Shown here piece by piece: positions 1 through 63,561 of a DNA stretch of 64,000 nt (its first letter is position 1; each line of letters starts with the position of its first letter). The notes under the pieces were generated by a model, which saw only the letters and a list, made by a program, of their open reading frames with translations, was not told the DNA's origin and did no database searches. A program made the translations under genes and the position numbers. Source of the stretch: Candidatus Omnitrophota bacterium (lineage in GTDB: Bacteria > Omnitrophota > Gorgyraeia > Duberdicusellales > 4484-171); NCBI GenBank assembly GCA_021735655.1, contig JAIPGM010000001.1, positions 161,728 through 225,727 on the forward strand, read 5' to 3'.

Positions 1-55
1 CCGTCTTGATCCAGTACGGGATAAATTACTCTATGACTATCTTTTAAAGCGTTTA

Positions 56-1240
56 ATGAGAGAGGGTATGATTGGAGCAGCAGTTGATTTTGAACAAATG
101 ATGCAGGCTAATTCCCTTTCGGTTAATCTTGCCCAAGTTGCGACTAGAAGATTGTTGGCCGATATAGCTATTTATCACACCGAAGAATTTGCTTTAGGAT
201 TACATCTCCAAACTAAAGGCGTGCCAACCTTTATTATGCCTCCGGCAATTAACCCTTTTAGTTATAAAAATATTCCCCTAGCTGATAATTTTATTCGGGC
301 AACTATGGTTAAATATGGTTTAGATCCCAATAAATTTACGGTTGTTGAAATATCACGTTTCGATCCTTTTAAGGGGCCGCTGGAGGCCATTCAGGCTTTT
401 GTGCGTTTATTTTTGGATAATCCGGGATTGCAGAATGATTTACAATTTGTTTATGCCGGAAATATGGCTGACGATAACCCTAAGGGAAAACGCGATTTTG
501 AAAAGATCGATGCCTATTCTCGCTATCTTAGAAAGAAATTTCCTAAACTTAGGAAAGCCTTGTTTTTGCTCGGTCTTGGGAATAAACCCGGGACAGTAGC
601 CTTAAATTGGGCCCAGAGACGCAGCTTGCGTGTTGGTGGTCAGTTTGCTCGGCCATTTTCTCGGAAAGAGATAGGTCGACTCAACGGTGTTGAGATAAAT
701 GCTCTTGAGGTTAATGCTTTACAGCAACAACTTGAGATGGAAAAAAGAGACGGTAGGTTAGTTATTTCTTTACCGCGTAAAATAGCAATACAGCCTTCAT
801 CAAAAGAAGGTTTTGGCTTAGTGGCGGCTGAGGCTACCGGAAAAGGTACTCTGGTTATCGCTTCTTTGATCGGTGGCCTTAAAGCGCAATTAAAGGATTT
901 GCTTGCGCAAGCTTCTTGGTTGGGCATTAACTATACGCCGGAGGAAATTAGTCAATCTTTAGAGGTGTATGACTCAATGGATTCTGATCAGCATAGAGGT
1001 GTTGTTTTCGATGTGGCTTATTTGGAAAGAATTAATTTATATCAACGGCTTAATCAACGAGAATTCGTTTTGGGTTTAGCTACCTCTCTGCGGGTGGCTT
1101 ACGAACTGGCTCATAAAAATCCAGATGTCTATCGAGAGCTCGGTTTAGCTGCACGTTGCCAGACTTTAGATAAGTTTATTACTCTAGCTAATGTTGAGAA
1201 CCGCTTAGCCGCCGCTTCCTTGATTGTTGATAATCAGCAG
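56..1240 (+). other. Module A: C-terminal portion of a GT4-type (group 1) glycosyltransferase, truncated at the window edge.
   Basis: Motifs EISRFDPFKGPLEAIQAF and EGFGLVAAEATGKGTLVIASLIGG match the GT4 C-terminal Rossmann domain (E-x7-E / EGFG...EA...G.P.I region). The module ends immediately before the PLDNG at 1241. Confidence 0.55.
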
Positions 1241-4200
1241 CCCTTGGATAATGGTAAGCCAGAAGTTCCGATGCCTTCTTCTTATTGGATCGATCATAGC
1301 CTTCTTCATGAAATTGATAATGTTTGGGCTAACTTGGATTGGATTAATCCCGGGCCAAGTTTAAGCATAGCTCGCCAGATTGAGAAAAATTTTAAGCCAG
1401 CACAAGAGCCAGGTTTTTTAAGAGTTAGCATAGATGCCTTTGGTCCGCTTAACGGATTTAAAAATCAAGTATTAGCTGAACATGAGCAGTATTTTGATTC
1501 CGAGGTTTATAAAGATTATCGAGCTGGCATAATTCATGCTATTGATAATCTTTGGCAACACGGCGGAAAGTACGGTGCCTTATTTTTGATGGCTCAGCTT
1601 AGAGGACGAACCGTACGCTTTACTTATTGTTTGCTAGATCGCGGTGATGGTTTTATTAATGACGATTACAACCATGTTCGTTTAGAAGAAGCCGTTCAGG
1701 CACATAGAACATTTAAACGAGCCGGCAAGAATGGTATGGGCCTTTATTATATGGCGATAAAGCCGGATTATTTTTCAATCACCGCGGTTAATTGCTACCG
1801 GGCTGTTGCCACAACTCAAGCTCACTATTGGGAAACTGGCTACACTAAAGAATGGCCGTTTTGCCCGCAACAAACTCCGGTTAACAAGGGGGTGCGGGTG
1901 ATTTCGGTAAAGGATGTAGCTTTAGGCCTTTTGCCATTTTCGAATATGCAGCCGTTAGATAATGGCCGTCGAACTGATGAAGAACGCCTGGATTTTATCG
2001 GATTTTTAGTTGAGTCATATTTAGAGGCTTTATTTACTTTCCGGAGGTTAAGAGCAAATAACAGCGAAGTAGCCGAGATGTATCTGCCAGCAATTTCCGA
2101 AACTGCCGTTAGAAAGAAACGAGCCAAATGGGTAGTTACAGCTGTTGAGGTTGCCCGTGAGGCATTTCAGGTTATGGCTCGAGCTGATTTTCGACATTCA
2201 TCCGGCTTAACCATTCGTTCAATCTTTGATTCAATTTTGGCTTCTGGCGGTCGCAACCAAGCAGCTAATGATCTAGGAGTCGATCGCGCTAGCCTTACTC
2301 GCTGGATGCATAGCTTACCTAATGATTTATTAGGTGGGTTAGATCCAGAATTAGCAGTCTTCAAACAAAGAATCCTTGATTTATTTGATGAAAACAATAC
2401 TCGACCCCTAGACAACGGTAAAGAAAATATAGATTTATTAGCGGTTACAGCAGTTAAAAGAGAGGACACCTCACCGTGGCTGGCGGGCCCTCTCTCTGCT
2501 GTAGCCCCTATATATATAGGTAAACAGCAGGGGCCGCTAGATAACGGCCGAGCGCCTTTGGATAATGGCCAGCCAGCTAACTTTTGGAAAGTTTTGCATT
2601 CTGGTATATACGTACTTCCGATATATTACACTCGACTTTTCGATACAGCTAAAGACGCAGGAATTGGAAAATATACTTATGTAGTGCCGTTTGTTCGTGA
2701 TCATGTATTGTCTTTAGGCCATCAAGCGATACTTTTCTTACCGTTTTCTTTGCAGTTACCTTGGTCGCAATCTCCTTATGATGCGGCTGATTGGCGTTAT
2801 TTTAATACTGATTATATTGATTGGGGGCTTATCCCTGAGGCTCAACCTTTTCTAGGTAAGTTCGATTATTACGGTCATTCACAGCGTAGCGTTGATTTTC
2901 GATCAATCCGGCCACGTGAATTATTAATCGGAAAGGCCGCCTTTCTTAATCTCAGAGACAATCGAGAAAAACAATACCGCCAGCGCTGGGAAGATTTTCA
3001 AAGGTTTGTTAACAATCAGCGAAGTAGAGGGCCGGAGTGGGATTTAACCCATCTTGGTCATTACCGGGCCTTCAATGATGTCTTGGGTAATGATTTTGGT
3101 TTATGGGTTCATGAAGGGATGTATTGCCCTAGGCAGGATACCCATCCAGATGTTATCAAGTACAACGTTGCTGAGCAAAATAAAAATATGCAATATTCAG
3201 ATTTAATTCAGTTCTATCAATACCAGCAATGGATTGCTTTCGGCCAGGCTCGCGATATGCTTGAAGGTTTGCGCAATATTGGTGTCTTTTATCTTTTAGA
3301 TAATCCTTTCTTTCATGCTAAGGGTGGTATTAATTTTTGGACCCAAAACATCATTTCAAGAGATAGGCATTATGAATTTTTTGATCGTTCACCCGGTGTA
3401 CCCGGAATCGGTAGTGACCCTGAACAATTCTGGACATCTTTGGTTCCTTGGAATTGGCCTAGATTAAGAGAGTTGGACTATGAACCTTTCTTAAACCCTT
3501 ATCATTATTATTTAGGTGATTTGGGCGCTCAGGGAGTTCGGGCTGATGCTATTCATTTTCTTTTTCCTTGGATTCATTGGGAACGCGGTCCTTATGCTGC
3601 TAATTTTCAGAGTTGGGAGTCCCCGGGTCATGATTTACTTTGGAGATTAGACAACGTTTTTAATTCTTATGGAGCTTTCAGGCTTGGCGAGTTACTTGGC
3701 CCGGGTTTTGAAAGTATTCAGAGAATGGGCTTTGATAATTATCACTGGCATTTCTATCGGATGTGGAAATGGGGTGGCGGACCTGATTTAAATCCGGGTT
3801 GGAACGCAAAAGCTTTAGAGTTACATGATGGGCCGCGGGTTTGTGTTGACCATGAACACGGGTTCTATCCTTATGCCGGACACGCTTATTTACGGCATCG
3901 TTTGGAGGGCCCGGGCGGTCTAAAAGAATTAAATAGTCGTTTCCTTTTAGGCAGTTCGGATATAGCTATGGTTTATGCCGGAGATGAAGTAGCCGACAAC
4001 TGGTGGATAAATAACCCTAATCTGCCTGAGTGGATGATGGATCGTAATTGGGCCACTCGAATGCCAATGCAGGGCGATCAGGATTTTGATCTTTCAGTAG
4101 CCTTGTCCATGCTTGAGCATCGCCGTTGGATTGGCCAGCGTCTAATTGAGCGGACGCCTTTGGATAATGGTAAGCAAGAGTTTAATCATCTTAGCTTGGT

Positions 4201-25200: not shown

Positions 25201-28200
25201 TCAAGTTCTGGATGTAGATGTTCTTGGCCATGACTATTGTCATATCGATAGAGTTGGCTTTGACGCTTGGCCTGATATGGCTATCGATCACTTTGAAATG
25301 GCCCGAATTGTTGATGAGCAGGATCAGCTATTACACACTTTTTGGTACGGTGTTTATTCAGAACGGATTCCCAATAGAGGTAGAGCTAGAATTTTAGGGG
25401 CGACTTTTACTGCCGGAGGTCACCTGCGACTTGGTAACGAAGATGTTTATCATGATGCGAACTTTCCCGAAGCTAGAGTAAATGTTACTTATATTGACGG
25501 AGAAGTAAGTGAGATATTAATTTATCAGGATGCTCAAGGCAACTCAGTAAATTATCATTATACTAAAAAGCAGATAGATAATTATAAGCGCAGAGTGCAA
25601 TATTATAATCTGCGCGGTCATGTATTCGAGCATGCTTTAAGAGTTGCCTTACCTTTTTTAAGCGACTGCCCTTTTGATTATCAAAAGCGCATTGGTGGTG
25701 AAGTTGATGGGTGGGTTGATGGTGAAGCTGAACCAAAGCCAGCTGATTCCAGATCACTTAAACGTCCAGATTTTACTAGTCCTTTTAGCTGGGCAATGAG
25801 TGAAGGGGTATTGTGCTATATTGATGCTAAATTCAATCTTAGAATTAAGTTTTTAATAGAATATCTAGAGGCAATTAAAGAGACTTTAAGAACTGATTAT
25901 TTTACTGATTGTGATGCCCCAGTTGAAACACATTTTGTAGGAAGAGTTATATTTGAGATAGTTTATTTAGGCAGAGTAAGTGAAGCTAATGTAGAGGCAA
26001 AGTTAGCTGGTCATCAGAGAAATTTTTCAGCTACCAATTCTGAGATGCTCACCTTGAAACCAGTTAGCTTTCTTGATGAGTACGGAGATAGGCTTAAGAC
26101 CGCTGGTCAGGATACTTTAGTAAGGTTTCTGAGACATCTGAGAGTTTTTCATTATAAGCCAGGTCGCAAGAAAGCCTTAGATAGCTATTTAGCCCAATTA
26201 GAACAGGATAAAATTCCCGAGATAGCCGATGAGCAGACTAATCTTTTTTCAAGGCCGCTGGATAATGGCCGAGAAAGATTATTGGTTAGTAGCGGTAATA
26301 GTCATTTAAAAAGTTTTCGTGAGGCGAAAGGTTTATTAGCAAAATTAAAATGTACAGACATTTTTGGGGTTGTCATGGGTTATCGCGCTGCCTTAGCTGA
26401 TAGAGATAATTATCAGAGAGTATTTGCTCGTGATTCTGTTTGGATGGGGTTAGCCGAAATGCTTTCCGGCTGTAAAGGTAGTTTAGCTTTAACATTAAGC
26501 GTATTAAAACATCATCAATGTCGGTACGGACAGAGACGCGGGGCTATTCCGAGTAACATTTCAAGGTATCATCGGGTAAGTTATGGGACAACTAGCCCAA
26601 GAATTGATCCAACCCTTCTTTATATTGTTAGTTCTGGCCAATATTATCGGTCCAGACCAGCCTATTTTCAAAAACAGTTTCTCGTTGAAAATTTATCGCC
26701 GCTACAAAAAGCTATAGCATATTTAGAAAGACAATGGGTTATGGATAACGGTTTATTGTTTATTCCGATTGCCGGAGATTGGGCTGATGAATATTTTCAA
26801 CAAGGCCTTGTTTTGTATGATGAAGTTTTATGGTATATGGCACTTTCAGAGTATGCCTACCTTTTAGCTGAAGATAATAATTCTAATTCAGAAGTTTATC
26901 AAGCTAAGGCTGCTTGGGTAAAGAATATAGTCAGATCCAAATTTTGGATAAATAAAAATCCCGGTCAAGGCAATTTGGGGCATTTCCGTCATTTTTTCAA
27001 TCAATTACAAAGCCCGAATCAGGCAGCGACATTTGGCTGTCCCTATGATAGCTTTGATGCTTTTGGTAATATTTTGGCAATTCTTTCCGGCGTGGCTACA
27101 GAGGAGCAAACTGCTCAGATAATTAAATATATTGATGTAATTTCAGAAAATAATCAGCCATTACTGGTGCCGGCACATTATCCGGCAGAAGAAGTTGAAC
27201 ATTTTGTTCACACAGGTGCTCCGTATCGGTATCAATTTAAGAATAATCCCGGGTGTTATCATAATGCTGGTTTATGGTCATGGTATACAGGTTTATATGT
27301 TGCGGCATTAGTGAAAGCCGGCCGATTAGACCGGGCGGCTAAATTTTTAGAAGGGGTACAGCTAGCCAATGAAGCTAAGGACTCAAATGGCCGGGGGTAT
27401 CATGAGTACCATACTAATATTCCCGGTCAATTGAGTAGGCCGGGTGGAGTTAGCAATTTAGGTGTCAGCGCTGCTGGTTATATAATAGCTCACCAAGCAT
27501 TTTTTAAAAATAAGATTGTTTTTGGTCAGAATCATCCTTTAGACAACGGCCGTCAGATGCCTGATTATTTTTCTCCGGTTGGAGACGTCAATGTAACTCT
27601 TAATAGTTCTTCAGAAAAAGCCCCCCTTGATAACGGAAGAAATTATTCCAGTTCGCCAATATTTCAAGAGACAACCTTTACCTATTGGTTAAGAGTGAGT
27701 TTATATTTATTAAGATTTTTGCTTAGTGCACCTTATTATTTTATTATTACTTTAGTTGTATCAAGAATGATGAAAGGAAAAAACATTTTATTTGTATCTT
27801 ACCGTATTAATGAATTTGCTTTAGATGGAGTATCTTTAGAAATAAAAGAGTGGCGAAATCTTTTATATCGATTGGGCGCACATATTTTTCTATTTTCTGG
27901 TCATAGCAAAATTGTTCAGGATGGAAGTATCACCGGTCAGGCTCCGGATTGCATTGAGAGTGATTTTCTTGCTGAACAGGCAACAAAAATAAGAGAGAAG
28001 ATTGAAAGAGAGGGAAAGCTAGATGCTGAAGATTTTGAATTAATTCATAGAGCAAAAGAGATAATTAAACGCAATCTGCGTAAGTGTATCTTGGAAAATA
28101 ATATTCACTACATTGTTTCGGAAAATGTATTTTGTCTACCGGGAAACCTCGCTCTTGCCGAGGCACTTATAGAACTTGCCGAAGAGTTTCCTCGGTTAGG

Positions 28201-29311
28201 TTTTATTTCTCATAACCATGATTTTTGGTGGGAACGATCCCGCTATTCAAAACATATTCGCACTGATTGTGCTAGTTACTTAGATAACCTTCATAATCGA
28301 ATCCGTCGCCAAACAGTCGTTGTTATAAATCAAGGCCAGTTGAGAAATATTTCAGATCATCTCGATGCTGGTTTGCACAAAGTATTTATTGTTCCGAACG
28401 TAAGAGATTTTTCCCGAAAGCCAAAAGTAGATCATTCGTGCGTAGCTAGGCTTAAGACTTATCTAAGACAGAGGCACGGGATTACTGAAGATTGCCATGT
28501 ATTTTTAGCACCGGTAAGGCCCGTTTATCGAAAGAATTTAGAACATGCTATTGATGGTTTGGCTAAAGTTCAGGAAGAAATGGGGGAACCTTTGCTATTT
28601 GTTGTAAGCCATAGCGCCCAAGATTCTCAACCAGGTTACGTTGACCAACTAAGAGCTCGGGCTGAAAGCCAGGGTCTTAAATTTGTTTATCTGGGTGAAG
28701 AAGTGCTTTCCGGTCAGTTTAGCTTAGAGACGATATATGCTTTTTGTGATATGGTCATTGTTACTTCTACCTGGGAGGGTTGGGGTAATGCCACGCTTGA
28801 AGCATTTTATTACCAGAGACCAGTTATTGTCTGGCCGTACCAGGCTTACCAAACCGAGATAAAGCCTGTAGGGCTAAGTTGCTTAGAGGCGCCTGAATTT
28901 TCTTCTGAGGTCATTACTTCGATAATTACGGTTTTACGATTTACTTGGTTGAGAAAAAGAATTGCTAGAGGGAATTATTGGTTAGCTAAATTACATTTTT
29001 CTTACCGAAGGCTTACAAGAGTATTTTTTAAAGTATTTAATAATTTAGAATCTGCCGAAACCAAAACACAACAATTTCCGCTTGATAATGGTAAAAAGGG
29101 TGAGGGTTCTAAACCAAAACAAAAATTATCTCCTTTCGAGAGATTTAAACAAGACATAGACGAGCTTCTTAGCAATCCCCAAATCAGGCAAGTAAGCGTA
29201 GACAGTATTCTTCAATTTTACGGCCCACGGCTGAAACGCGATGTTGTTGAGGCCCATCTTAAAAGTAAGGGTTTCCAACGCCGGGATAGAGACACCTATT
29301 TAATTCCCTGA
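56..29311 (+). CDS. Giant stop-free ORF, at least 9,751 codons and 5'-partial (frame open back to window position 2). It encodes a polyprotein-like chain of about 28 heterogeneous modules separated by a recurring PLDNG[RK] peptide.
   Basis: The ORF track gives 56..29311. I read the 18 codons upstream of the ATG at 56 in frame and found no stop before the window edge. Absence of TAA/TAG/TGA over about 9.75k codons is essentially impossible by chance at this base composition. The translated content carries many recognisable enzyme motifs listed below. The stop at 29309..29311 is TGA. Confidence 0.6.
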   Translation: MREGMIGAAVDFEQMMQANSLSVNLAQVATRRLLADIAIYHTEEFALGLHLQTKGVPTFIMPPAINPFSYKNIPLADNFIRATMVKYGLDPNKFTVVEISRFDPFKGPLEAIQAFVRLFLDNPGLQNDLQFVYAGNMADDNPKGKRDFEKIDAYSRYLRKKFPKLRKALFLLGLGNKPGTVALNWAQRRSLRVGGQFARPFSRKEIGRLNGVEINALEVNALQQQLEMEKRDGRLVISLPRKIAIQPSSKEGFGLVAAEATGKGTLVIASLIGGLKAQLKDLLAQASWLGINYTPEEISQSLEVYDSMDSDQHRGVVFDVAYLERINLYQRLNQREFVLGLATSLRVAYELAHKNPDVYRELGLAARCQTLDKFITLANVENRLAAASLIVDNQQPLDNGKPEVPMPSSYWIDHSLLHEIDNVWANLDWINPGPSLSIARQIEKNFKPAQEPGFLRVSIDAFGPLNGFKNQVLAEHEQYFDSEVYKDYRAGIIHAIDNLWQHGGKYGALFLMAQLRGRTVRFTYCLLDRGDGFINDDYNHVRLEEAVQAHRTFKRAGKNGMGLYYMAIKPDYFSITAVNCYRAVATTQAHYWETGYTKEWPFCPQQTPVNKGVRVISVKDVALGLLPFSNMQPLDNGRRTDEERLDFIGFLVESYLEALFTFRRLRANNSEVAEMYLPAISETAVRKKRAKWVVTAVEVAREAFQVMARADFRHSSGLTIRSIFDSILASGGRNQAANDLGVDRASLTRWMHSLPNDLLGGLDPELAVFKQRILDLFDENNTRPLDNGKENIDLLAVTAVKREDTSPWLAGPLSAVAPIYIGKQQGPLDNGRAPLDNGQPANFWKVLHSGIYVLPIYYTRLFDTAKDAGIGKYTYVVPFVRDHVLSLGHQAILFLPFSLQLPWSQSPYDAADWRYFNTDYIDWGLIPEAQPFLGKFDYYGHSQRSVDFRSIRPRELLIGKAAFLNLRDNREKQYRQRWEDFQRFVNNQRSRGPEWDLTHLGHYRAFNDVLGNDFGLWVHEGMYCPRQDTHPDVIKYNVAEQNKNMQYSDLIQFYQYQQWIAFGQARDMLEGLRNIGVFYLLDNPFFHAKGGINFWTQNIISRDRHYEFFDRSPGVPGIGSDPEQFWTSLVPWNWPRLRELDYEPFLNPYHYYLGDLGAQGVRADAIHFLFPWIHWERGPYAANFQSWESPGHDLLWRLDNVFNSYGAFRLGELLGPGFESIQRMGFDNYHWHFYRMWKWGGGPDLNPGWNAKALELHDGPRVCVDHEHGFYPYAGHAYLRHRLEGPGGLKELNSRFLLGSSDIAMVYAGDEVADNWWINNPNLPEWMMDRNWATRMPMQGDQDFDLSVALSMLEHRRWIGQRLIERTPLDNGKQEFNHLSLVESNGEQKLYSASSLVISQRGVYLSPTSTGPKEVISQIQLSPSGIKVSGELTSQEPKSRPIDYRHSYEINFYFEKLAKAYGRGLFVGINDVQLWIRLSQALGDFLWGVLRLETGIFDIPDRKLRRLVIQEALYHEVMTSALGLSVANRGLREFFATILSVSHFCYLSEIAKDQDKLNYRLGILQALDRGLIQMSDSLAGLYRQIAESGSLPDPATLVKAVITHINEEERYHSDRRSFRDYVRTKSENFSGRFTVGNLTQAVLNDSALQLELQAEWTNFLGFLANSQTVARAWQPKIKFIRGPRGIKVINPQGVPDQGGYQFQLQSFRAIFDCLGLPNPLSEPAALNRYLGFLPEPPEYDSQAVNLPELNISQILPGVAVVYPDSLEANQLAVRRALYELMNFRVWKLAVEIRGALGTEDALFFDQHCQVHSFVDVAQGWMLDLNPQSPIVYDDVLPGGQAYEAPEQPDLAEHERLHQKAQAVFSKVWAITMNRFLRDQRMFGGEAVGLVGFTTTVPILYRYIQQCKHSEPEYSLQRPLNNGLGILQYLQSLRRSQETEAARRVSLDQGFGQLKSLLVEKLQSIDSTTLSIANLDQALNEDSQAIFLTLEQLREARFQAESFRNGQVSMCDLASLALAAASEEVFGQRHLVKIVVGYYRVDEQLYKKHYWVVIDETLLIDITYGQFDPDHLNRILVATVDDYLRLKLEYGTELEPLDNGKQTQVQPTCLEARWWNNYYPGVIEGTGIRPTARSLSFEQIEEVVCLLLLDQAGQELVAKIINRELPDVYPSVRRTALKAMVRFDHYELFGPKIITCLQDVVRDGAEMYQPFALYALAQTPAFNGPVANRFAEEALKGTLKPSPRKPTAAEKTALQEGLEPNTQAIRFKSRLASVEYLKGVLAQRQGWARVCLGTVPHFSRVSNRALINKFAAQVLAADKKLSSSSAQRRQKDKSEFWGLEQAEFIHPATGHEALVELANDPELSSSDESPLVDQILHQMEELGYVPILRPSKFQLTEPAQGQEAEIDREALWTKDAVLMISTKFGIVPVSSALANLKGGEFVSGYGKRGSFMIIPAAALNSKQQLSDIIPEVPIHVFPSGFLVINDQGVIRLRGTSHIDTSLGAIPIMARPESGQLMLIDPLLHQVARTHPRYRDHYQSVVQEDGVRFIDVPEPERHLNPANFGILPGGEIFMPYAPRTKQVLIEAGVNEQYIIMLPSEFNKYLPTLHVLAGSIGCLVAQAFHPVEKREPLDNGHEKEKRQTRSRAIDISTKGAEDLLFTELQTGSLVSLVVDGLEYWLSLDQGDEVWFDLYRPKDDIIGYIYFRNDAMPARKIANFGGPSIVPAYRGRHLSRVLYFVYFRYLWRNNYIPEEDCLTIDDRLALKLYHEAKKFYYDQDHTFTPFQIIPRAEKTKAAKPLDNGHDMVQKQLFELIKRKSDSIKTFLEPFEACLAYNGVLALLIRGRPDLSVKFLLKKIGSAEHWFLLAETVLGNHQFVVDISPQGKMFTDIEVLVVDCAEAGKINYLYEDYTVVSDQETENLLRALARQKGMNEFLHLVHQLPEEKWIGRLPDSDQSMPLDNGKLINEGSESSFSDITNSMRVTFVMPMYNEQQRLLPKTSDNPYGEDALRVKVSQFRELEQENPNFQWRLIAVDDGTPGFASAKCLEQILAEIDAQNREFNIYSKVFVVVITEQEKKLLGSRKGGAVLRGFQEALSHGWADYIGITDTDISSNVNQTKDLILALRKGAGVAIGSRRQSGAEARGIPLLGRVSTVIYNWCIRLILWPLFSIRDTQRGFKLFQKEVIVRILPYARDHHLSFDTELLLLSRLAGYQIAEVPIVWIDSAEATTLVMSKDAPAMLWRVIKQARHIFNNPFRGQKPLDNGRKINLSVRMLRKARLITVHVDAGDCPAALASAIDKLVSGLGQIQVSRSNIVLNTAHQNSPMDIVSSVGSLSTEQITTLFPEAVFLIAGGNVFKCLRNLVESLAVGSVNKRTVRIFVLYDYTYGQGSNYSPEQLAGEYYDYFSDMLSVYSDRFNLAVFYLAQNQFEQEIYGKNLSGPNLSLAIIEKEALASQVPLDNGRSLGELTAEGYNLKFLARSSDLRMTAHCRRDVSFNSYLYDYRLDPEHTYRQAQLVPLVARSVKENAFRKSSDWQYLPQHLKDLYDSGKVLMIASRAQAKAKPSRYSALVISGRTEAFSGRMGILLYDNRPIIVSILDKPFFIEAKGIGVAQGGFSSVHRRSGHRYEVTGAQRWQASLKEFTSLELERKISRFFGTADTPRALAAIVYKYPQMDQLISDSLTSQAERREAKEQLGDSLGIMLRLSPSSRRFAYNLEQRHIRMLGEASARLLCSYLPRVHTSPHFENLLEWAEGSEFSWSDYGDIEVLFAQSSYHWSRSLINARRILMSYLETSISWNVNLLKKLGIIETEAEFISEYLAGFVAYAETLDWITPEAIERLARVRSPKEFVDVMIFEVFALNAYNVFKKQTYETIVEVNQNNLVEELLSSALTIAQRQEKAQLVAELSGHIEAAKQGEAFLGCRIKKSQANQGVLTPVAQPVKNSSWANPFFDQFAYDLWHALLFDDHNLYDYVQAKWDYTVGEEGAFNVAGFYLLDAHYLGLLRSRTSMHNIPEKLYMCSAGYEMTANINKLLTAINRVSLCPQENTLVRSTVRNTLQHAISQRLSKWRLARALILVVESNGEVLAGDDSTYVYIMDSGPGMPIDAVMQGDWRRHSTMFGTDLKGFREYRDVEWILDSWSSKAGGPQRWDGLRGGLVEGALVPDNMPLFGTLFGMRLKHGLESSSKPLDNGRDSRSKGQNLGSLGTANKAPPVKTYNVESPFNRFSLRLLDLILTLSFLPLIILASLPIAIFVKYQIFKHKTGQSVIFKEQRFGYKGKPFIMYKFRTYIGDKDNPKAVLLSLRCLGLDELPQWWNILKGDLSIWGVRPKLQDDPSSDSDFQAHLDQINDLRKPGIISLATADVHAEMEHVSFSAEHRDRQIAFDLYEAEYWSFFLAFKIVVLNIFAQFKEAARIVFRNKILVIVAVHIPQAEQPKAGPILNILEYLSQRFPSKYYSVFVGFPDSGNPNLNLDLAIPQGLTIGLGEGDEYNIVNSQGLKLKFSWQFEGPDDLSQRTLKIGRHKLLMPLCAESSLPVFSGAKKKIPHKAIFIPFIAFRPCIVTCMNDLIFLNLPIIGLDTANGIFLFVPGSTQIDIVGTNKLLAVAINHSGRVMGSSFKDLDQVVPLDNGRQTISHFRSGEGQSRTGPTSRNFPLDNGGRNNEAIENNRFSFANRLGKVLVATVIGGISLGLLYLFGGLDWYTNIKNSIPLGAVIFWPGAFLDMVTGVLIWLISDIVGQYLNQGRSIRYRQSFKVGAWGVFQGLATHILYNLVELLPVVPLPLAQAMFRTIFTLFGGLTINIFYTVVVARARKASKAEGYSGLKERHKAYDVIFSKFIVAPIKTYFIVNLLPPATRVISEQAWEYLMKVFDAYLMNRKDSLFSSYILNLLSRKKPLDNGRSGQSDDQITLVSDNLVDSFRNVRQRLVVTVRRAQMSRLDFKPGIVSLQNMSPKVDYFCLSSISERQEDIQAYRQVPLVQDGASFGESYSEKYLIAQEPDTLVLVEGDEGLIASFDYSLCGCLVIRARNLFGMAHLSPFIDFSDEEMEIENDRIYYKYLSVLDYFKLQGYKDVQIFLSLNELLQGFKTLKARLWSAGDSDATNRQRVVDLLGIEARQRGIAVVDRRLRQKSEVLDVLGFPRKMISRQWLNRGTKPESFEIIFIETRDELPVAINSETQQPEIEYFQFAWPVVIPLDNGRRKLPNDDWIWVNGESLQFVGRDGLLITGMEGRGKSFLARKIYDSDDRWKVVSCGATHVCIRNELAERALLGRRLSENNLLYSRLSGTIPVELSLDVVVRLNWVMALDDLYREILGGLLADAGQRESLGLKIIDMSDLDVTRQWPKVLKFINASIVKPETYDKGNSLFQVPLDNGRRAQVEQEREFLIQTIINVFSQGEGLCLEPAQIEAAIAVDTSFDEYRIARNLPIVIGLKGNIYENCPLASKPLLLVFTGRGSITKPELIFNAYTQQGLVREASRLSRSMETKNAIWEIPYHGKKTAFILEDKNNWIALAAVYGPEDIYQQGLLICKGGDRITRLGTEISQAAGEADEEAIFSDYSRALVVARLLGFSILDGPDMMRRVNRRMSAMIAAAKETVADINEFAKAYPGYEAVDTHHILKPTTSNPVEEGGFPHTEWMVTSRGVVQGTVTALRWLRQVLDVGENRYPEEVVRFVKNLNIFGSPMSYIVQGFGDVGSGITKLFLTIFKIFGFQARGFNNRYFAIYRREGLPKPFLVEAREIVEVSPDALDLGRLLAMKSFDDQLQGAVVWIANPINPKTKEPVFGPADVDRVNQALAERGVTAIWGDQTVVNELIYQKATVLFLAATANVISELSQVERLQVKIISEGANNAVKPELREPLRKANVFYIPGELLNGGGIYASKEDIRHNHTDGSELIRQHRQYYYIHVTDEIDTLALHRMISFLEIWAESAGNFSFDLTVHVEKVAGRIFEAADNLVRTNNTRLRKFTQIDQKRTFDHQAGRPTLPWRHSLYEIAIEMAPMGILYHLRDVGRHLSLLNRFKVAIKEDGQIDNYHICRLRFALFELTKLGYYLKSNQRRRLIGLLPGIITDEKCDGLLRKDAMFCLAMAIRWQEEESCKSEVDRARKLYLGILQNPLESAQLHTWAQHCLYRIFGENYFRRISADFDRLNGVNLPKPLDNGRDSSVGITSEPLRILAELISNSYRTKALVEFLQPFLDCESVNYLQEEIAKHCQLPAWGVVSSSHYLDEGYFYYGLKSGIDRCLERGVMVENDGNRLYVTKDSEDTVKYSGLDETQENQWGIFIFPSEYFNQAINCGYAEAGLRLSHNRLGITTYPYFKSSLSLAPARFLIIDRSKADEHRHLEGQPKLKDKLQALTEAGLKVLWLPDSSGPFFDPDFQYAFGELLFSNDIPETNRFLFYPSADTQDLTKIIWWVLQSLRMSSIKNRLLHNMELARQFKKIGPFDNGRADFTTADEQIGNLFAEAVITGDNVLIETHWDAVAAKRGGSLNILEHAGLRITRSLALGIVPRAGEWPDRVETDQIILSSSRYGWIDSERDIEHLLSGFDQARLLNSFNLGHYYQGCHYRSFLSWLAVLKSSHFPAVIFHFIGELINSWGIKPAAKSDFPVLASRRDIFSFVSVPYVSDIEKLDLPVAVFFDGKLSSLRRGDSRKQPTLILAYWQALNGFIGFKEQIARETAEFQNTPLDNGRKEHDISDSTVIQWPLNVIVKDMRGLSKGEILAVVKTGKIFWGREIVGAIFSDRNIVFGKVVDDKFIVFDDWLIERIPGGLLEGLRRSILFLPYLGSILRNKTSSINKPLDNGKKYNYRQVLEMVDCFDSARLEAHLFRALGRVETEAVSIAGDIIRAARKFERITKAVKSLYRKTYGKLPNFTLAFDPSGQGMYGAYQEDDTAGFFDHIGVAPEDVLLEVGSGDGSISDFMAHMFGIKATGIEVWEPYYHYAVFLRDEAVRRRFIPEGKVDFLNNNLVDVDFSKYSLVYYAALGTRRKSELAARLLGVREKSRILIRGSPDELVEGIIASHPDFSLRKLEIEVNENLTGIKARVYTRETITSYQPVLDVPLDNGRKNNPQMVRARLAAFEKSIEGIVPRADPLYDHLIRFYQYPLNNLGEPDEETYVRNNTKEQERELLRFWAGHFGLPKNYGGHVTIGIGQAEYYAMYVASNRFPKAIFYISNQVDSLLYDTLQVLGIDQGRIKLIRSLENGEIDYGDLKRKIRENSSWPAVVCLTAGRFLGAVDDLGKVEGILGSLGLKHKHIHCSMSPLSIGQSFLEDAAKIDFQHGLDSMSLPLYHFVRCPMPGVIVLTRRKYLQNIACSQKAAEYVNSNDTTNSGSRSGHAPLYLWFATKVIGTKGFKAQAERAREVCVSIKALFDRYGYPCRFTAQKNTIIFEPPFYELRQKWGLLSHGQWSCFEIVPYLTPVEIAEFVSDLLGDHSQAVAAPVETVFPERIVYEPSPEVLDVLDQLEARIQILMERFLGFPANIAGNETSFAALSSLFKYTLRKKDVEGFRHEALKFFTDLYGLRYEDFYCGITAGGTWGNRVGLLVGRENFPGGILYYSQDSHYSIDKVARSLNMEVRKVASLSNGQIDYDELAEAIEENRGRPVIVNLNIGTTMKGAIDNPQRVIEILREQDVTDYYIHCDAALFGMILPFLEAAPKIDLANGVHSIAISGHKFLGLPMPSGIFMVRKNCARDRLITISDRLLTAQTGHVILYFWQAVASRGYEGCREEAMACVDNAQYLYYRLQERGLPSEVNPFSNITMFSRPSGSLIDTWQLAPCGDRVHVVAMQHVTRDKIDAFVQELTRDMQQGQIELASSMQPLDNGRRRKASLVPEVGLDELVEKHLGNLKLISSEYGKSVGMLSTILRRPDNESLQQRAEELRKIGPGRLALAADLGEFGVDSLKIGQKYGVGRRTAASWLVNNGFGDRVNSARYSRSRTLRRQKIAQEYEPIARLLDGEGNLLQTFYTHISWKEVSAYPFAVLDELEIQATEVLSYGGKQWGQFKGHAGHRARITLEWGYPIEVAMSSKRGVDQGSYRAMQLRTYQSTLFDREGELLDTAFFVFGYDEDLCRGTTKVVNYQLTKAGRISIFGDEQIQLIKHKQAWANLVAVDGKVVRATILDREGGNEVITYNFSRVYDENNRVIYTFTGGLEFKQSSVPPALLKSLARGRIEGIYLKGGRGNLTIGGRTWVVLSDYKNYPCRAYIEEGLVVRVEVLGEEGEAVFTKHSHRLYDREDNFVEVFYDSISPERLNQVGLCRSSPLIVTPSGELCLSGNRYTFENEGGSKAIVWIEPGVKFTRNRKPDGKAVRIDFYDQYMHYKHTRYAVRIYEDEGVLIDTFFGPGYAEKLKIFGDVIGFAQLDTLGSLNIGYTTHTFTKYGDPRHFVRFSLHQAQVLDVDVLGHDYCHIDRVGFDAWPDMAIDHFEMARIVDEQDQLLHTFWYGVYSERIPNRGRARILGATFTAGGHLRLGNEDVYHDANFPEARVNVTYIDGEVSEILIYQDAQGNSVNYHYTKKQIDNYKRRVQYYNLRGHVFEHALRVALPFLSDCPFDYQKRIGGEVDGWVDGEAEPKPADSRSLKRPDFTSPFSWAMSEGVLCYIDAKFNLRIKFLIEYLEAIKETLRTDYFTDCDAPVETHFVGRVIFEIVYLGRVSEANVEAKLAGHQRNFSATNSEMLTLKPVSFLDEYGDRLKTAGQDTLVRFLRHLRVFHYKPGRKKALDSYLAQLEQDKIPEIADEQTNLFSRPLDNGRERLLVSSGNSHLKSFREAKGLLAKLKCTDIFGVVMGYRAALADRDNYQRVFARDSVWMGLAEMLSGCKGSLALTLSVLKHHQCRYGQRRGAIPSNISRYHRVSYGTTSPRIDPTLLYIVSSGQYYRSRPAYFQKQFLVENLSPLQKAIAYLERQWVMDNGLLFIPIAGDWADEYFQQGLVLYDEVLWYMALSEYAYLLAEDNNSNSEVYQAKAAWVKNIVRSKFWINKNPGQGNLGHFRHFFNQLQSPNQAATFGCPYDSFDAFGNILAILSGVATEEQTAQIIKYIDVISENNQPLLVPAHYPAEEVEHFVHTGAPYRYQFKNNPGCYHNAGLWSWYTGLYVAALVKAGRLDRAAKFLEGVQLANEAKDSNGRGYHEYHTNIPGQLSRPGGVSNLGVSAAGYIIAHQAFFKNKIVFGQNHPLDNGRQMPDYFSPVGDVNVTLNSSSEKAPLDNGRNYSSSPIFQETTFTYWLRVSLYLLRFLLSAPYYFIITLVVSRMMKGKNILFVSYRINEFALDGVSLEIKEWRNLLYRLGAHIFLFSGHSKIVQDGSITGQAPDCIESDFLAEQATKIREKIEREGKLDAEDFELIHRAKEIIKRNLRKCILENNIHYIVSENVFCLPGNLALAEALIELAEEFPRLGFISHNHDFWWERSRYSKHIRTDCASYLDNLHNRIRRQTVVVINQGQLRNISDHLDAGLHKVFIVPNVRDFSRKPKVDHSCVARLKTYLRQRHGITEDCHVFLAPVRPVYRKNLEHAIDGLAKVQEEMGEPLLFVVSHSAQDSQPGYVDQLRARAESQGLKFVYLGEEVLSGQFSLETIYAFCDMVIVTSTWEGWGNATLEAFYYQRPVIVWPYQAYQTEIKPVGLSCLEAPEFSSEVITSIITVLRFTWLRKRIARGNYWLAKLHFSYRRLTRVFFKVFNNLESAETKTQQFPLDNGKKGEGSKPKQKLSPFERFKQDIDELLSNPQIRQVSVDSILQFYGPRLKRDVVEAHLKSKGFQRRDRDTYLIP
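2218..2310 (+). other. Fis-type helix-turn-helix DNA-binding motif inside module C (1967..2404).
   Basis: SIFDSILASGGRNQAANDLGVDRASLTRWM resembles the C-terminal HTH of Fis/NtrC-family regulators (consensus GN.s.AA..LGisR.TLyRKl). Confidence 0.45.
2570..4156 (+). other. Module E: alpha-amylase-superfamily (GH13-like) glycoside hydrolase or transglycosidase module.
   Basis: About 529 aa between the PLDNG sites at 2555 and 4157. GVRADAIHF resembles GH13 conserved region II (GFRxDAAKH) with its catalytic Asp. The module is rich in aromatic carbohydrate-binding residues. The upstream GT4 (TreT-like) module is consistent with alpha-glucan or trehalose metabolism. Confidence 0.4.
7955..8440 (+). 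other. Module I: GNAT-like N-acetyltransferase fold, tentative.
   Basis: IGYIYF...SIVPAYRGRHLSRVLYFVYF resembles GNAT motif A (V.P.yRG.GiG..Ll). The module is 162 aa, a typical GNAT size. Confidence 0.35.
8987..9826 (+). other. Module K: GT2-family glycosyltransferase (dolichyl-phosphate-sugar synthase-like).
   Basis: MRVTFVMPMYNE matches the GT2 N-terminus, followed by IAVDDGTPG (DxD-type) and GITDTDIS. The RGFKLFQKE region and the length of about 280 aa fit GT2. It is bounded by PLDNG at 8921 and 9827. Confidence 0.7.
12700..13300 (+). other. Small phosphoglycosyltransferase (PglC/WbaP C-terminal-like bacterial sugar transferase) domain within module N (12620..13915).
   Basis: FNRFSLRLLDLILTLSFLPLIILASLPIAIFVKYQI is the re-entrant membrane helix. 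FKEQRFGYKGKPFIMYKFRTY, DELPQWWNILKGDLSIWGVRP and DLYEAEYWSFFLAFKIVV are the hallmark motifs of the Bac_transf family. Confidence 0.7.
14015..14722 (+). other. Module P: polytopic integral membrane module of unknown function.
   Basis: Several long hydrophobic stretches (VLVATVIGGISLGLLYLFGGL, GAVIFWPGAFLDMVTGVLIWLI, LFGGLTINIFYTVVVA). The module lies between PLDNG at 14000 and 14723. Confidence 0.5.
15632..16141 (+). other. Module R: P-loop NTPase module.
   Basis: The Walker A-like motif ITGMEGRGKSFLARKI is present. The module is about 170 aa. Confidence 0.4.
16450..17700 (+). other. Glu/Leu/Phe/Val-dehydrogenase-like (amino acid dehydrogenase) domain within module S (16157..18496).
   Basis: IVQGFGDVGSGITKLF matches the NAD(P)-binding GFGNVG motif. 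EGANNAVKPE matches EGANGPTTPE. IPGELLNGGGIYAS matches PDILANAGGV. The motif order and spacing fit the ELFV_dehydrog family. Confidence 0.5.
20435..21205 (+). other. Module W: class I SAM-dependent methyltransferase module.
   Basis: LLEVGSGDGSISDF is the glycine-rich SAM-binding motif I. The module is about 257 aa and lies between PLDNG at 20420 and 21206. Confidence 0.55.
22480..23460 (+). other. PLP-dependent group II decarboxylase (histidine-decarboxylase-like) domain in module X. A degenerate duplicate lies upstream at about 21400..22200.
   Basis: YYIHCDAALFGMILPF matches H-x-D-A-A. SIAISGHKFLGLPMPSGIFMVRK matches the PLP-lysine motif S-x-HK of the histidine/aromatic amino acid decarboxylase family. 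The upstream half (YISNQVDSLLYDT...ENGEIDYGDL...AVVCLTAGRFLGAVDDL...IHCSMSPLS) has the same layout but lacks the HxDAA and HK motifs. Confidence 0.6.
23495..26254 (+). other. Module Y: large (920 aa) RHS/YD-repeat-like module.
   Basis: Recurring YD-type repeats: FDREGELLDTAFFVFGYDED, RVYDENNRVIYTFTGG, RLYDREDNFVEVFYD, RIYEDEGVLIDTFFGPGY and ILDREGGNEVITYNF. Confidence 0.4.
26270..27535 (+). other. Module Z: (alpha/alpha)6-barrel glycoside hydrolase of the glycogen-debranching (GDE_C / amylo-alpha-1,6-glucosidase) type.
   Basis: IPIAGDWADEYFQQGLVLYDEVLWYMALSEYAYLL, FGCPYDSFDAFGNILAILSGV and NNPGCYHNAGLWSWYTGLYVAALVKAGR match conserved blocks of the GDE_C family. Confidence 0.55.
27638..29077 (+). 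other. Module AB: N-terminal transmembrane helix plus a GT4-type glycosyltransferase.
   Basis: A hydrophobic helix (LYLLRFLLSAPYYFIITLVV) is followed by a two-Rossmann GT-B layout. The C-terminal VTSTWEGWGNATLEAFYYQRPVIV matches the GT4 E-x7-E region. Confidence 0.55.
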
Positions 29312-63264: not shown

Positions 63265-63267
63265 GTT

Positions 63268-63561
63268 ATGAAAGCCGACCAGTTAAAGGGCAAGTGCATG
63301 ACTATTAACGAAGAAATTATTTCTTGGCGAGAGATCGACAAAGAGGTAGTATTTCTTAATAAACAGGAAAAAAGTTTTTACGAATTAAACAAAACAGCTG
63401 AGATCATTTGGCGCCAGTTAGCCAAAGGCGGTAAACTGACTCAGGTAATTTCTCAGGTTCAAAAGAAATATAAGAAAGTAGGTAAGCAAGACATAGAAAG
63501 AGATGTAATTGCTTTTATTGCAGATGGAATTAAGAAAAAAATATTTATTGTTAATAAATAA
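63268..63561 (+). CDS. PqqD-family protein (RiPP recognition element-like peptide chaperone).
   Basis: The protein is 97 aa. ISWREIDKEVVFLNKQEKSFYELNKTAEIIWRQL...DIERDVIAFIADGIKKKI fits the PqqD fold consensus (W...e.vll....y.LN..a..iW..ldG). It lies immediately upstream of, and overlaps, an rSAM gene. Confidence 0.55.
   Translation: MKADQLKGKCMTINEEIISWREIDKEVVFLNKQEKSFYELNKTAEIIWRQLAKGGKLTQVISQVQKKYKKVGKQDIERDVIAFIADGIKKKIFIVNK

Follow-up and report, generated by a model that had tools for sequence, protein, structure and literature searches.

A recurrent hexapeptide marks the protein boundaries of a giant bacterial reading frame that is probably a protease-processed polyprotein

The window, meaning the whole 64-kb stretch of DNA that was analysed, opens with a giant open reading frame (ORF) at 2..29311 on the forward (+) strand, on which all features described here lie. 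It has at least 9,769 codons, with its stop codon at 29309-29311 and its first in-window ATG at nt 56. Because the frame stays open as far as window nt 2, the window edge truncates the ORF, whose full length exceeds 9,751 codons. Comparison with the family model shows that about 140-170 residues at the N-terminus of the TreT-like family are missing from its first module. The ORF stands at the head of a chromosomal-looking gene array on the same strand, which continues with Opp/ABC transporters and radical-SAM genes.

A short peptide, PLDNG[R/K], splits the ORF into about 30 modules. The enzymes among them are trehalose-synthase-like, MalQ-like, GT2, phosphoglycosyl-transferase, Glu-dehydrogenase-like, methyltransferase, histidine decarboxylase, GH100-like and mannosylglucosylglycerate (MGG)-synthase-like proteins; the rest are a helix-turn-helix (HTH) regulator, membrane proteins and many modules without an assigned function. 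No paralogy was found among the window modules, and only 6 transmembrane (TM)-like segments occur across the 9,751 aa.

PLDNG is exact in 27 copies, and two one-mismatch variants bring the total to 29, all in frame in the one ORF. The preliminary description had listed all 29 as copies; the positions are indeed in frame, but those at 5807..5824 (PLNNGL, a possible junction only) and 19355..19372 (PFDNGR) are variants. The number expected by chance from composition is 0.008, and 2000 shuffles gave a mean of 0.008 and a maximum of 1, which bears out the earlier claim of an excess over chance. No copy of PLDNG occurs in the other frames or ORFs of the 64-kb window. The residue after Gly is R in 17 copies, K in 7, H in 2, and Q, G and L in one each; the 18 R counted earlier would bring the sum to 30. 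Distances between motifs range from 7 to 925 codons, with four tiny intervals of 7, 28, 29 and 43 codons, so the lower limit of 110 codons given earlier does not hold.

The motif is constrained only as a peptide, as had been proposed. Leu is encoded by all six of its codons, Asp and Asn by both of theirs and Gly by all four, and the 27 exact copies contain 25 distinct 15-mers. None of the motif positions departs from the codon usage of the ORF as a whole (all p > 0.05), and pairwise nucleotide identity between copies averages 0.783, against 0.788 +/- 0.011 expected for random synonymous codons. Synonymous codons are used in the motif as they are elsewhere in the ORF, which places the constraint on the peptide. 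A DNA-level repeat was rejected since nucleotide identity sits at the synonymous-random level.

The same figures bear on whether the pattern could be a DNA-level or technical artefact, left by seams of recombination or assembly, by a synthetic origin of the DNA or by mis-assembly into a chimeric ORF. One observation points that way: P0002 and P0007, two related ORFs discussed below, are the same except for 22 mismatches within their first 23 residues, at a junction adjoining a gyrA fragment, which suggests that at least one relative's MAG contig is chimeric. The DNA of the window ORF is also present in Logan assembly SRR12088349, contig 9023, where 21.7 kb are identical in an independent assembly; its 29 kb are free of stop codons and frameshifts; and three further independent data sets (NCBI MAG, JGI/IMG and TARA station 037) contain related ORFs whose motifs are variants. 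A coincidence of the motif with assembly or synthetic seams, which the preliminary description had named as grounds for refutation, is ruled against by the independent assembly and the varied 15-mers. The artefact is effectively refuted, and the chance that it explains the motif is negligible.

Read along the ORF, the copies fall between recognisable proteins. Copy 1 (PLDNGK, 1241..1258) lies at the end of the TreT-like GT4 module. Copies 2 (PLDNGR, 1952..1969) and 3 (PLDNGK, 2405..2422) stand at the start and end of the HTH protein (module 3, aa 633-783, 1952..2404). Copies 4 (PLDNGR, 2534..2551) and 5 (PLDNGQ, 2555..2572) form a tandem pair, the second of them at the start of the GH77 (MalQ-like) module. 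They are followed by copies 6 (PLDNGK, 4157..4174), 7 (PLDNGK, 6338..6355) and 8 (PLDNGH, 7940..7957). Copy 9 (PLDNGH, 8441..8458) is at the start of module 11 (aa 2796-2955, 8441..8920), copy 10 (PLDNGK, 8921..8938) between module 11 and the GT2 module, and copy 11 (PLDNGR, 9827..9844) at the end of the GT2 module, after its conserved ...RHIFNNPFR.

PLDNGR then recurs as copies 12 (10418..10435), 13 (12605..12622, start of the phosphoglycosyl-transferase module) and 14 (13916..13933), and copy 15 (PLDNGG, 14000..14017) is at the start of a multi-TM module. Copies 16 (14723..14740) and 17 (15617..15634), both PLDNGR, precede two more at 16142..16159 (copy 18) and 18497..18514 (copy 19), which bound the 785-aa Glu/Leu/Phe/Val-dehydrogenase-like module 20 (16142..18496). 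Next come copies 20 (PLDNGR, 20081..20098) and 21 (PLDNGK, 20420..20437). Copy 22 (PLDNGR, 21206..21223) starts module 25 (21206..23479), which carries histidine decarboxylase in its C-terminal ~380 residues and is followed by copy 23 (PLDNGR, 23480..23497). Copies 24 (PLDNGR, 26255..26272) and 26 (PLDNGR, 27623..27640) stand at the start of the GH100-like and MGG-synthase-like modules, copy 25 (PLDNGR, 27536..27553) follows the former, and copy 27 (PLDNGK, 29078..29095) is at the start of the last module, module 30 (77 aa, aa 9675-9751, 29078..29308), which runs to the stop codon and is not followed by a motif.

Pfam and NCBIfam models were used to locate the ends of these proteins. The histidine decarboxylase match (NF002748, E 1.1e-151, 504.9 bits vs a cutoff of 305) reaches profile position 375/382 at residue 749 of the 758-aa module, and copy 23 lies ~3 residues past the extrapolated C-terminus. 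The GH100 profile has its extrapolated end at aa 9152 with the motif at 9161, about 9 residues on; GT2 (NF041391) ends at aa 3249 with the motif at 3258; and the extrapolated end of MGG synthase (NF041101), aa 9675, is the motif itself. The extrapolated C-termini of the enzyme families are thus 0-9 residues ahead of the next copy, and no copy lies inside a matched domain. The ends of these four modules match full-length family models, as free-standing proteins in one ORF would. The earlier statement on domain boundaries is thereby confirmed and extended: the boundaries at which the motif sits are those of whole proteins rather than of domains.

Information content is limited to the six residues; the flanks carry none, and the residue before Pro is unconstrained, as had been noted. 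The flanks of +/-12 residues are more hydrophilic and have a higher disorder propensity than random positions, in both the window ORF and P0007 (p <= 0.0005). Met after the motif is not enriched (7 vs 7.2 +/- 2.4 expected), so internal initiation does not account for the modules, and internal translation starts were rejected as their origin. An N-glycosylation sequon was also rejected, as the motif contains no D/E-x-N-x-S/T or N-x-S/T.

A translational signal was one mechanism suggested earlier. The nascent PLDNG[RK] would cause the ribosome either to skip one peptide bond or to terminate and then reinitiate, in the stop-go manner of 2A peptides. A peptide-level constraint at protein junctions would suit such a signal, and N-G loosely recalls the NPG↓P of 2A (the arrow marks the bond). 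However, the motif does not match the consensus D(V/I)ExNPGP, as the preliminary description had already remarked, and the Pro-Gly-Pro core is absent. To our knowledge, 2A peptides need ~18 conserved upstream residues and have been shown to act only on eukaryotic ribosomes; here the residues upstream are unconstrained and start codons after the motif are not enriched. With neither a nascent-chain context nor the 2A consensus, stop-go or recoding is unsupported and very improbable.

The other suggestion was autocatalytic, non-enzymatic cleavage, in which the Asn side chain would form a succinimide and break the chain at each Asn-Gly. Asn-Gly is invariant in 29/29 window copies and in all variants in the relatives, and it is the most succinimide-prone dipeptide. 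Unstructured Asn-Gly, however, mainly undergoes deamidation to Asp/isoAsp rather than chain scission, and efficient cleavage by Asn cyclisation is known to us only within dedicated folds (inteins, and the NPTH of FlhB/YscU). Six conserved residues between uninformative flanks mean that no fold is attached to the site: Hint/intein domains had no Pfam matches, and no conserved autoprocessing domain of ~100 or more residues lies beside the Asn. Autocleavage would also leave unexplained why Pro, Leu and Asp are strictly conserved, why a basic residue follows Gly, and why -1 and +5 change in concert by lineage, as described below. It is therefore unsupported, and we rate it as quite unlikely.

Relatives of the window ORF are few. 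Only three related sequences were present in the databases searched, and the closest carries the label Planctomycetia. A profile search with the HTH module, which is common to P0002/P0007 and P0005, returned only P0002, P0005 and one spurious repeat protein among 1.84 billion representatives. A scan of genome contigs matched only the P0002 contig, and scans of metagenome contigs and viral contigs found no relatives. P0007, a related 7,587-aa ORF from another metagenome, has modules 3, 4, 11, 12, 20 and 30 in common with the window ORF, in a different order; module 20 is 58% identical to P0007 821-1601.

At 11/11 internal ends of the shared modules, the motif is aligned with a P0007 variant. 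The preliminary description had taken loss of position in related sequences as evidence against a functional site; the position is kept, and the motif itself is altered. Copies 2, 3, 10, 11 and 18 are aligned with SLDNGG, copy 9 with NLDNGG and copy 19 with SLNNGG. P0007 junctions read [SN]L[DN]NGG in 23/24 cases and SFDNGG in one, and P0005 has FDNGGR, LDNGAK, FTNGGQ and ETNGGN. Shared boundaries are thus kept in a related lineage with a different variant, [S/N]LDNGG. All sites are altered in concert between lineages, which points to a common reader that co-evolves with its sites.

That reader may be something other than a protease. The chain could stay intact as a tethered multi-enzyme complex, with the motif serving as a short linear motif for a common non-proteolytic partner. 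This partner might be a scaffold or an assembly factor, or else an enzyme that modifies the motif, for instance one with a transglutaminase fold that deamidates or cross-links the Asn. The motif sits in hydrophilic linkers, concerted change between lineages needs a common reader and not specifically a protease, and the existence of a giant multi-enzyme ORF without obvious punctuation (P0001) makes uncleaved fusions plausible in the group. The fold class of module 11 also contains deamidases, transglutaminases and PNGase, which act on Gln/Asn side chains.

Several features fit poorly with an intact chain. Module 30 has no motif after it in the window ORF, where it is terminal; its P0007 ortholog (2824-2902) is internal and is followed by KSRE and SLDNGG. 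Absence after a terminal module, and presence once that module is internal, is a pattern to be expected of a separator more than of a docking tag. Nor is it clear why docking would call for tandem sites 7 residues apart. P0007 contains a consensus Tat signal (RRDFLK and h-region) that starts 16 residues after a motif, 6,431 residues into the chain; it is the sole such signal in the 7,587 aa, and its Pfam TAT_signal score is 16.8 bits, under the 22.7 cutoff. P0007 closes with a module that is an RpoD-family sigma factor (sigma-70), and in P0005 TM anchors begin 10-15 residues after motifs. As modules of P0007, the Tat signal and the sigma factor argue for release as separate proteins, an argument drawn from P0007 and not from the window ORF. 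It is hard to see how a Tat signal, a sigma factor, HTH regulators, polytopic membrane proteins and cytosolic enzymes could all perform their functions on one uncleaved chain, and an intact chain seems unlikely.

The module that may encode the reader is module 11. It is ~160 aa long, has the motif at both sides and is one of only six modules common to both lineages. It has a conserved C2829 (nt 8540), H2860 (nt 8633) and D2877 (nt 8684), with a Cys-to-His spacing of 31 residues, and two low-pLDDT models predict a transglutaminase/papain-like fold. No match to it was found in Pfam, NCBIfam, PDB sequences or a 5.8-billion-protein set; modules 7-10, 14 and 26 likewise have no PDB sequence match. 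Based on the predicted fold and the Cys-His-Asp residues, module 11 is the best candidate for a protease that reads the motif. The same fold class also includes deamidases, transglutaminases, acetyltransferases and PNGase, which counts against certainty that it is a protease. An M23 peptidase-like module of P0007 was considered as a general protease and rejected (27.2 bits vs a cutoff of 28.7, with no counterpart in the window ORF).

Altogether this suggests, with a probability of roughly 0.6, that the giant ORF is a protease-processed bacterial polyprotein of about 30 otherwise independent proteins with PLDNG[R/K] at their junctions. The proteins would be translated as a single chain, with the hexapeptide in a hydrophilic linker at each junction. 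One sequence-specific endopeptidase would recognise the motif and cut at or beside the Asn-Gly or Gly-basic bonds (N↓G or G↓R), freeing the individual proteins in fixed stoichiometry in the fashion of viral polyproteins. This enzyme may be module 11 of the same ORF. A junction site read as a peptide, as first proposed, is the best-supported explanation given the spacing from C-termini, the 11/11 conserved boundaries and the lack of a motif after the terminal module. A protease recognition sequence is the sole mechanism of those proposed earlier to have gained support, from the concerted change of the motif and the conserved Cys-His-Asp module with its predicted transglutaminase/papain-like fold. 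A cut at G↓R/K would expose N-terminal Arg or Lys, which is destabilising in bacteria with Aat/ClpS, and this counts against the polyprotein reading. So do the tiny modules (7-43 aa), whose products would have no obvious role.

Viral polyproteins (potyvirus NIa-Pro, picornavirus 3C with Q↓G, coronavirus PLpro with LXGG↓, and ASFV pS273R with GG↓X) likewise encode many proteins in one ORF, with a near-identical peptide of 5-7 residues per junction in exposed linkers. They too have lineage-specific sites altered in concert, a protease (here a candidate) within the chain with its own sites at both sides, and small spacer peptides between some sites. The P0007 site ends in Gly-Gly, as do sites of clan CA/CE proteases. 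In contrast to them, the window ORF is cellular and carries metabolic enzymes and regulators in place of virion or replicase proteins; its candidate protease has a predicted transglutaminase-like fold with no sequence match to a viral protease, and cleavage here is putative.

Bacterial systems were compared as well. Among the closest known are the LapG/BTLCP bacterial transglutaminase-like cysteine proteases and vasohibin/CPR-C4-type proteases. In the relatives, a variable residue comes after variants that close with GG or GA (LDNGG, LDNGA), the same dipeptide class as the double-glycine leaders cut by C39 peptidases, and the candidate enzyme is likewise Cys-His-Asp with a clan-CA-like predicted fold. 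The window motif differs in having N-G rather than G-G (only one window site has GG), in lacking an LSxxELxxIxGG leader helix, and in lying at internal junctions rather than in N-terminal leaders. The 31-residue spacing of module 11 is shorter than in C39, where Cys and His are ~80 residues apart, and C39 peptidase (PF03412) has no match in the window ORF at E <= 0.5. A sortase or exosortase signal (LPXTG, PEP-CTERM) was rejected, as the window sites are internal and few TM segments follow (3/29 have a TM-like segment within 50 residues). The Porphyromonas gingipain precursors HRgpA and Kgp are likewise single bacterial products from which cleavage yields several functional polypeptides; these are a small number of related domains that belong to one secreted complex, and the cuts come after Arg or Lys. 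They differ in having neither ~30 unrelated cytosolic and membrane proteins nor a dedicated hexapeptide.

Giant genes of Omnitrophota were described by West-Roberts et al. 2023 (bioRxiv 10.1101/2023.11.21.568195), with many fused enzymatic domains that include glycosyltransferases and sugar metabolism. The authors proposed post-translational cleavage, stated that the cleavage points are unknown, and reported giant proteins with many TM segments and C39/S8 peptidase, SecA and dockerin features; no recurrent junction motif was reported. The window ORF resembles the Archaeovorin and Dockerin types as a very long ORF that fuses many enzyme domains. It differs from them in its few TM-like segments and in having none of the listed domains: Pfam scans found no C39/S8 peptidase, SecA-like or dockerin domains in it.

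No paper was found in the literature with PLDNGR or PLDNGK, on such bacterial polyproteins, or on the source accessions, and a virus-style polyprotein for bacterial cellular genes has not previously been described. Bacteria are thought to co-express functionally linked proteins via operons, not polyproteins. If the polyprotein reading is true, cellular life would have a new way of expressing genes, one that enforces stoichiometry, needs a single initiation event and had gone unrecognised in cellular prokaryotes. It would bear on whether giant bacterial genes make one protein or are cleaved, and where, and would supply the missing cleavage map. The question is directly testable, as 29 putative cleavage sites are defined and the presumed catalytic residues of a candidate protease can be named. 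A compact orthogonal pair of protease and site could be of use in multi-gene expression, and over-represented k-mers at domain boundaries could be a general route to annotating other giant ORFs.

A broader version of the polyprotein reading is tentative and somewhat doubtful. In it, some uncultivated PVC-group bacteria (labels Planctomycetia and Omnitrophica) would make as many unrelated proteins as an operon encodes in the form of a virus-like polyprotein, cut by an embedded transglutaminase-fold cysteine protease at a lineage-specific peptide: PLDNG[RK] here, SLDNGG in the sister lineage, and perhaps SSSP[LV] in a giant ORF from Omnitrophica. The second half of the window ORF had no database match at E <= 1e-5. 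Its first 5,000 residues had only 4 database matches, among them P0003 and P0004, which are giant ORFs labelled Candidatus Omnitrophica, and P0003 carries a different recurrent peptide, [AST]SSP[LVA].

The frame of the giant ORF on the forward strand is open from nt 2 of the window to a stop codon at 29309-29311, a length of 9,769 codons with the first ATG at nt 56. In its first module, aa 36-151 align with the TreT model (412 positions) from position 175 to 283, so that about 140-170 N-terminal residues of this TreT-like module are absent. The ORF is truncated by the window edge, and the true gene is longer than 9,751 codons, with its start beyond the window. Over 21.7 kb the window is identical to contig 9023 (129.8 kb) of Logan assembly SRR12088349, which, like the window, terminates within the giant ORF. 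The sequence is natural, not artefactual. Three genes at 60545-63561 were also called on the Logan contig with equal lengths.

All 29 motif coordinates listed in the preliminary description are in frame. PLDNG is exact in 27 of these copies; the copies at 5807 (PLNNGL) and 19355 (PFDNGR), previously counted with the rest, are one-mismatch variants. Composition predicts 0.008 copies (2000 shuffles: mean 0.008, maximum 1), and none was found elsewhere in the 64 kb in any other frame or ORF. Position-specific information shows Pro, Leu, Asp, Asn and Gly to be near-invariant across copies, with no conservation detected on either side of the six motif residues, so the residue before Pro is indeed unconstrained, as had been stated. 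The residue after Gly is R in 17 copies on recount, not 18, K in 7, H in 2, and Q, G and L in 1 each. At the DNA level the 27 exact copies are 25 distinct 15-mers, synonymous codon use at each motif position does not differ from that of the whole ORF, and mean pairwise nucleotide identity is 0.783 vs 0.788 +/- 0.011 expected under random synonymous codons. Constraint therefore acts at the level of the peptide and not of the nucleotides, which bears out the earlier reading. The same codon statistics, together with the independent data sets, refute a DNA-level or artefactual origin of the repeats, to which we give virtually no chance.

Domains were assigned along the ORF with Pfam and NCBIfam. 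Unrelated enzymes are scattered over it, each between motif copies: a TreT/GT4-like glycosyltransferase, a GH77 4-alpha-glucanotransferase, a GT2 dolichyl-phosphate-hexose-transferase-like enzyme, a Bac_transf phosphoglycosyl transferase, a Glu/Leu/Phe/Val-dehydrogenase-like domain, a methyltransferase, a histidine decarboxylase (NF002748, E 1.1e-151, exceeding the curated cutoff), a GH100/GDE-like hydrolase and a mannosylglucosylglycerate (MGG)-synthase-like GT4. Module-vs-module comparison found no paralogy. Native C-termini were estimated by extending each family model to its final position, and for four models they fall 0-9 residues upstream of the following motif: histidine decarboxylase at about aa 7806 (next motif at 7809), MGG synthase at about 9675 (9675), GH100 at about 9152 (9161) and GT2 at about 3249 (3258). 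The placement of motifs at recognisable domain boundaries, claimed earlier, thus holds. No copy lies within a matched domain, and some modules are multi-domain, such as that of histidine decarboxylase, where about 380 unassigned residues precede the enzyme without an intervening motif; the motif divides proteins, not domains. The 12-residue flanks on both sides are more hydrophilic and disorder-promoting than random positions (p <= 0.0005).

Distances between motifs run from 7 to 925 codons, not from 110 as first described, and include intervals of 7, 28, 29 and 43. These tiny motif-bounded segments of 43, 7, 28 and 29 aa lie at 2405-2572, 13916-14017 and 27536-27640, and PLDNGRAPLDNGQ is a double site in tandem. 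The 43-aa segment is kept in a related giant ORF, P0007 (PWLAGPLS..P.Y.IGKQ), and, given this conservation, could act as a small peptide with a function or as a spacer.

Homologs of the giant ORF are very rare in the databases searched. Its first 5,000 residues gave four matches in 5.8 billion proteins, all four of them giant ORFs of 3,056-5,131 aa, and its second half gave none at E <= 1e-5. A profile of the HTH module, run against 1.84 billion representatives, found only two genuine relatives: P0002, from a MAG labelled uncultured Planctomycetia, and P0005, an 827-aa fragment from the mesopelagic at TARA station 037. P0002 (5,131 aa) is the C-terminal portion of P0007, a 7,587-aa ORF on a 64.9-kb JGI/IMG contig, and is identical to its residues 2480-7587. 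The 23-residue N-terminus of P0002 (CAZFML010000001.1, 1-520) is unlike P0007 and starts with an ATGA overlap directly after a gyrA-C-terminal-like ORF; either a real rearrangement created a new start inside a methyltransferase module, or the MAG contig is chimeric.

P0007 carries its own form of the motif, [S/N]L[D/N]NGG, in 24 copies, one of them SFDNGG; LDNGG occurs 21 times vs 0.009 expected. P0005 has FDNGGR, LDNGAK, FTNGGQ and ETNGGN. Six modules of the window ORF have orthologs in P0007, in a different order: module 3 (HTH; aa 633-783, P0007 3108-3275, 63% identity), module 4 (43 aa; 784-826, P0007 742-799, about 43% over a module-spanning BLAST segment), module 11 (2796-2955, P0007 1706-1861, 33%), module 12 (GT2; 2956-3257, P0007 232-529, 49%), module 20 (5363-6147, P0007 821-1601, 58%) and module 30 (9675-9751, P0007 2824-2902, 50%). 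The preliminary description had named loss of motif position in relatives as refuting its reading, and the opposite was found: PLDNG aligns with [SN]L[DN]NGG at 11 of 11 internal boundaries of the shared modules, and similarity fades within a spacer of 0-12 residues directly before the motif. Module 30 ends the window ORF as ...DTYLIP and a stop codon; its counterpart in P0007 is internal and reads ...EIYLLP-KSRE-SLDNGG. Since the module lacks the motif when terminal and has it when internal, the motif acts as a separator, added when further protein follows. We are almost certain that it serves, at the peptide level, to separate independent proteins. With one variant per lineage and orthologous sites that differ across lineages, the sites have changed in concert, which indicates a common reader co-evolving with them.

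The best explanation of the motif is that it is a candidate proteolytic processing site, which we hold at a probability of roughly 0.6. Circumstantial evidence from the sequences favours cleavage of the chain over mere linkage. Twin-arginine signals normally function at an N-terminus, and the P0007 module that begins at 6415 has a consensus one, DRRDFLK and a hydrophobic stretch, 16 residues past the motif (Pfam 16.8 bits, under the cutoff); this pattern occurs once in the 7,587 residues. The final module of P0007 (aa 7049-7587) is an RpoD/SigA-family sigma-70 factor. One chain mixes HTH regulators and cytosolic enzymes with polytopic membrane proteins, of which P0007 has a GT2 module with 14 TM segments and the window ORF a multi-TM module. 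In P0005 TM anchors start 10-15 residues past motifs. In the window ORF, TM-like segments are few and begin 25-46 residues past a motif (modules 15, 17 and 29; 12605-14722 and 27623-27760), which would suit separate proteins anchored in the membrane by their N-termini.

A cut between Asn and Gly, the bond common to all variants, would leave an N-terminal Gly. A cut past the last Gly would resemble clan CA/CE sites cleaved after GG and would fit the GG and GA variants of the relatives. Spontaneous cleavage at Asn-Gly is very unlikely, as the sites have no accompanying fold and it would account neither for Pro, Leu and Asp nor for the changes specific to each lineage. Stop-go translation is less likely again: NPGP is absent, upstream residues are without conservation and the ribosome is bacterial. 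Internal initiation was rejected as a source of separate products, because Met is not enriched past the motif (7 vs 7.2 +/- 2.4 expected).

The shared module 11 (nt 8441-8920), with the motif at both ends, is a tentative candidate for the processing protease. Its two known sequences have an invariant Cys, His-Trp and Val-Val-Asp (window residues C2829, H2860 and D2877), and no family match was found at the sequence level. The AlphaFold2 models of both orthologs are of low confidence (pLDDT 58 and 60) and agree in placing the Cys at a helix N-terminus, followed by strands bearing the His and Asp. The predicted fold would also suit a deamidase or transglutaminase, and so the rival reading of a docking or modification motif that is not cleaved survives, as an unlikely one. 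P0007 also has an M23-peptidase-like module (aa 6729-7048; HLHFE motif; Pfam 27.2 bits vs a cutoff of 28.7), with no counterpart in the window ORF. M23 enzymes cleave Gly-Gly bonds, and the P0007 motif ends in GG.

The giant ORF leads a same-strand array with an Opp transporter, ABC exporters, about ten radical-SAM domains, glycosyltransferases and a PqqD-like protein. Downstream, at 35259-64000, is a tightly packed same-strand cluster rich in radical-SAM genes, with a 1,284-aa protein of three rSAM/SPASM units, a 1,052-aa protein of two B12-rSAM units, further rSAM genes, a methyltransferase, GT4s, ABC-2 exporters, an amine oxidase and the PqqD-like ORF (97 aa, 63268-63561). This cluster resembles machinery for the maturation of peptides or natural products; it yielded no precursor, and PLDNG is absent from its fused proteins.

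The logic is the one known from viral polyproteins that contain their own protease, here a candidate one, whereas the setting is non-viral; a scan of viral contigs for relatives found nothing. In the literature searched the motif is absent and a comparable bacterial polyprotein is undescribed. West-Roberts et al come closest with a preprint on giant genes (bioRxiv 10.1101/2023.11.21.568195), in which cleavage is suspected and the cleavage points are stated to be unknown. The processing mechanism proposed here is of a known kind and its host context is unprecedented, and the question of cleavage in giant genes becomes directly testable. Another giant multi-enzyme ORF, P0001, has no recurrent junction-type peptide. 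A Candidatus Omnitrophica giant ORF, P0003 (4,658 aa), has a different one, [AST]SSP[LVA], in 10 copies (SSSP 5 and SSPL 5, vs 0.06-0.09 expected), and those at 1179, 1830 and 2291 border its three GT2 copies. The peptide may serve as an independent junction motif in giant genes of Omnitrophota, and it hints that lineage-specific punctuation may be more general.
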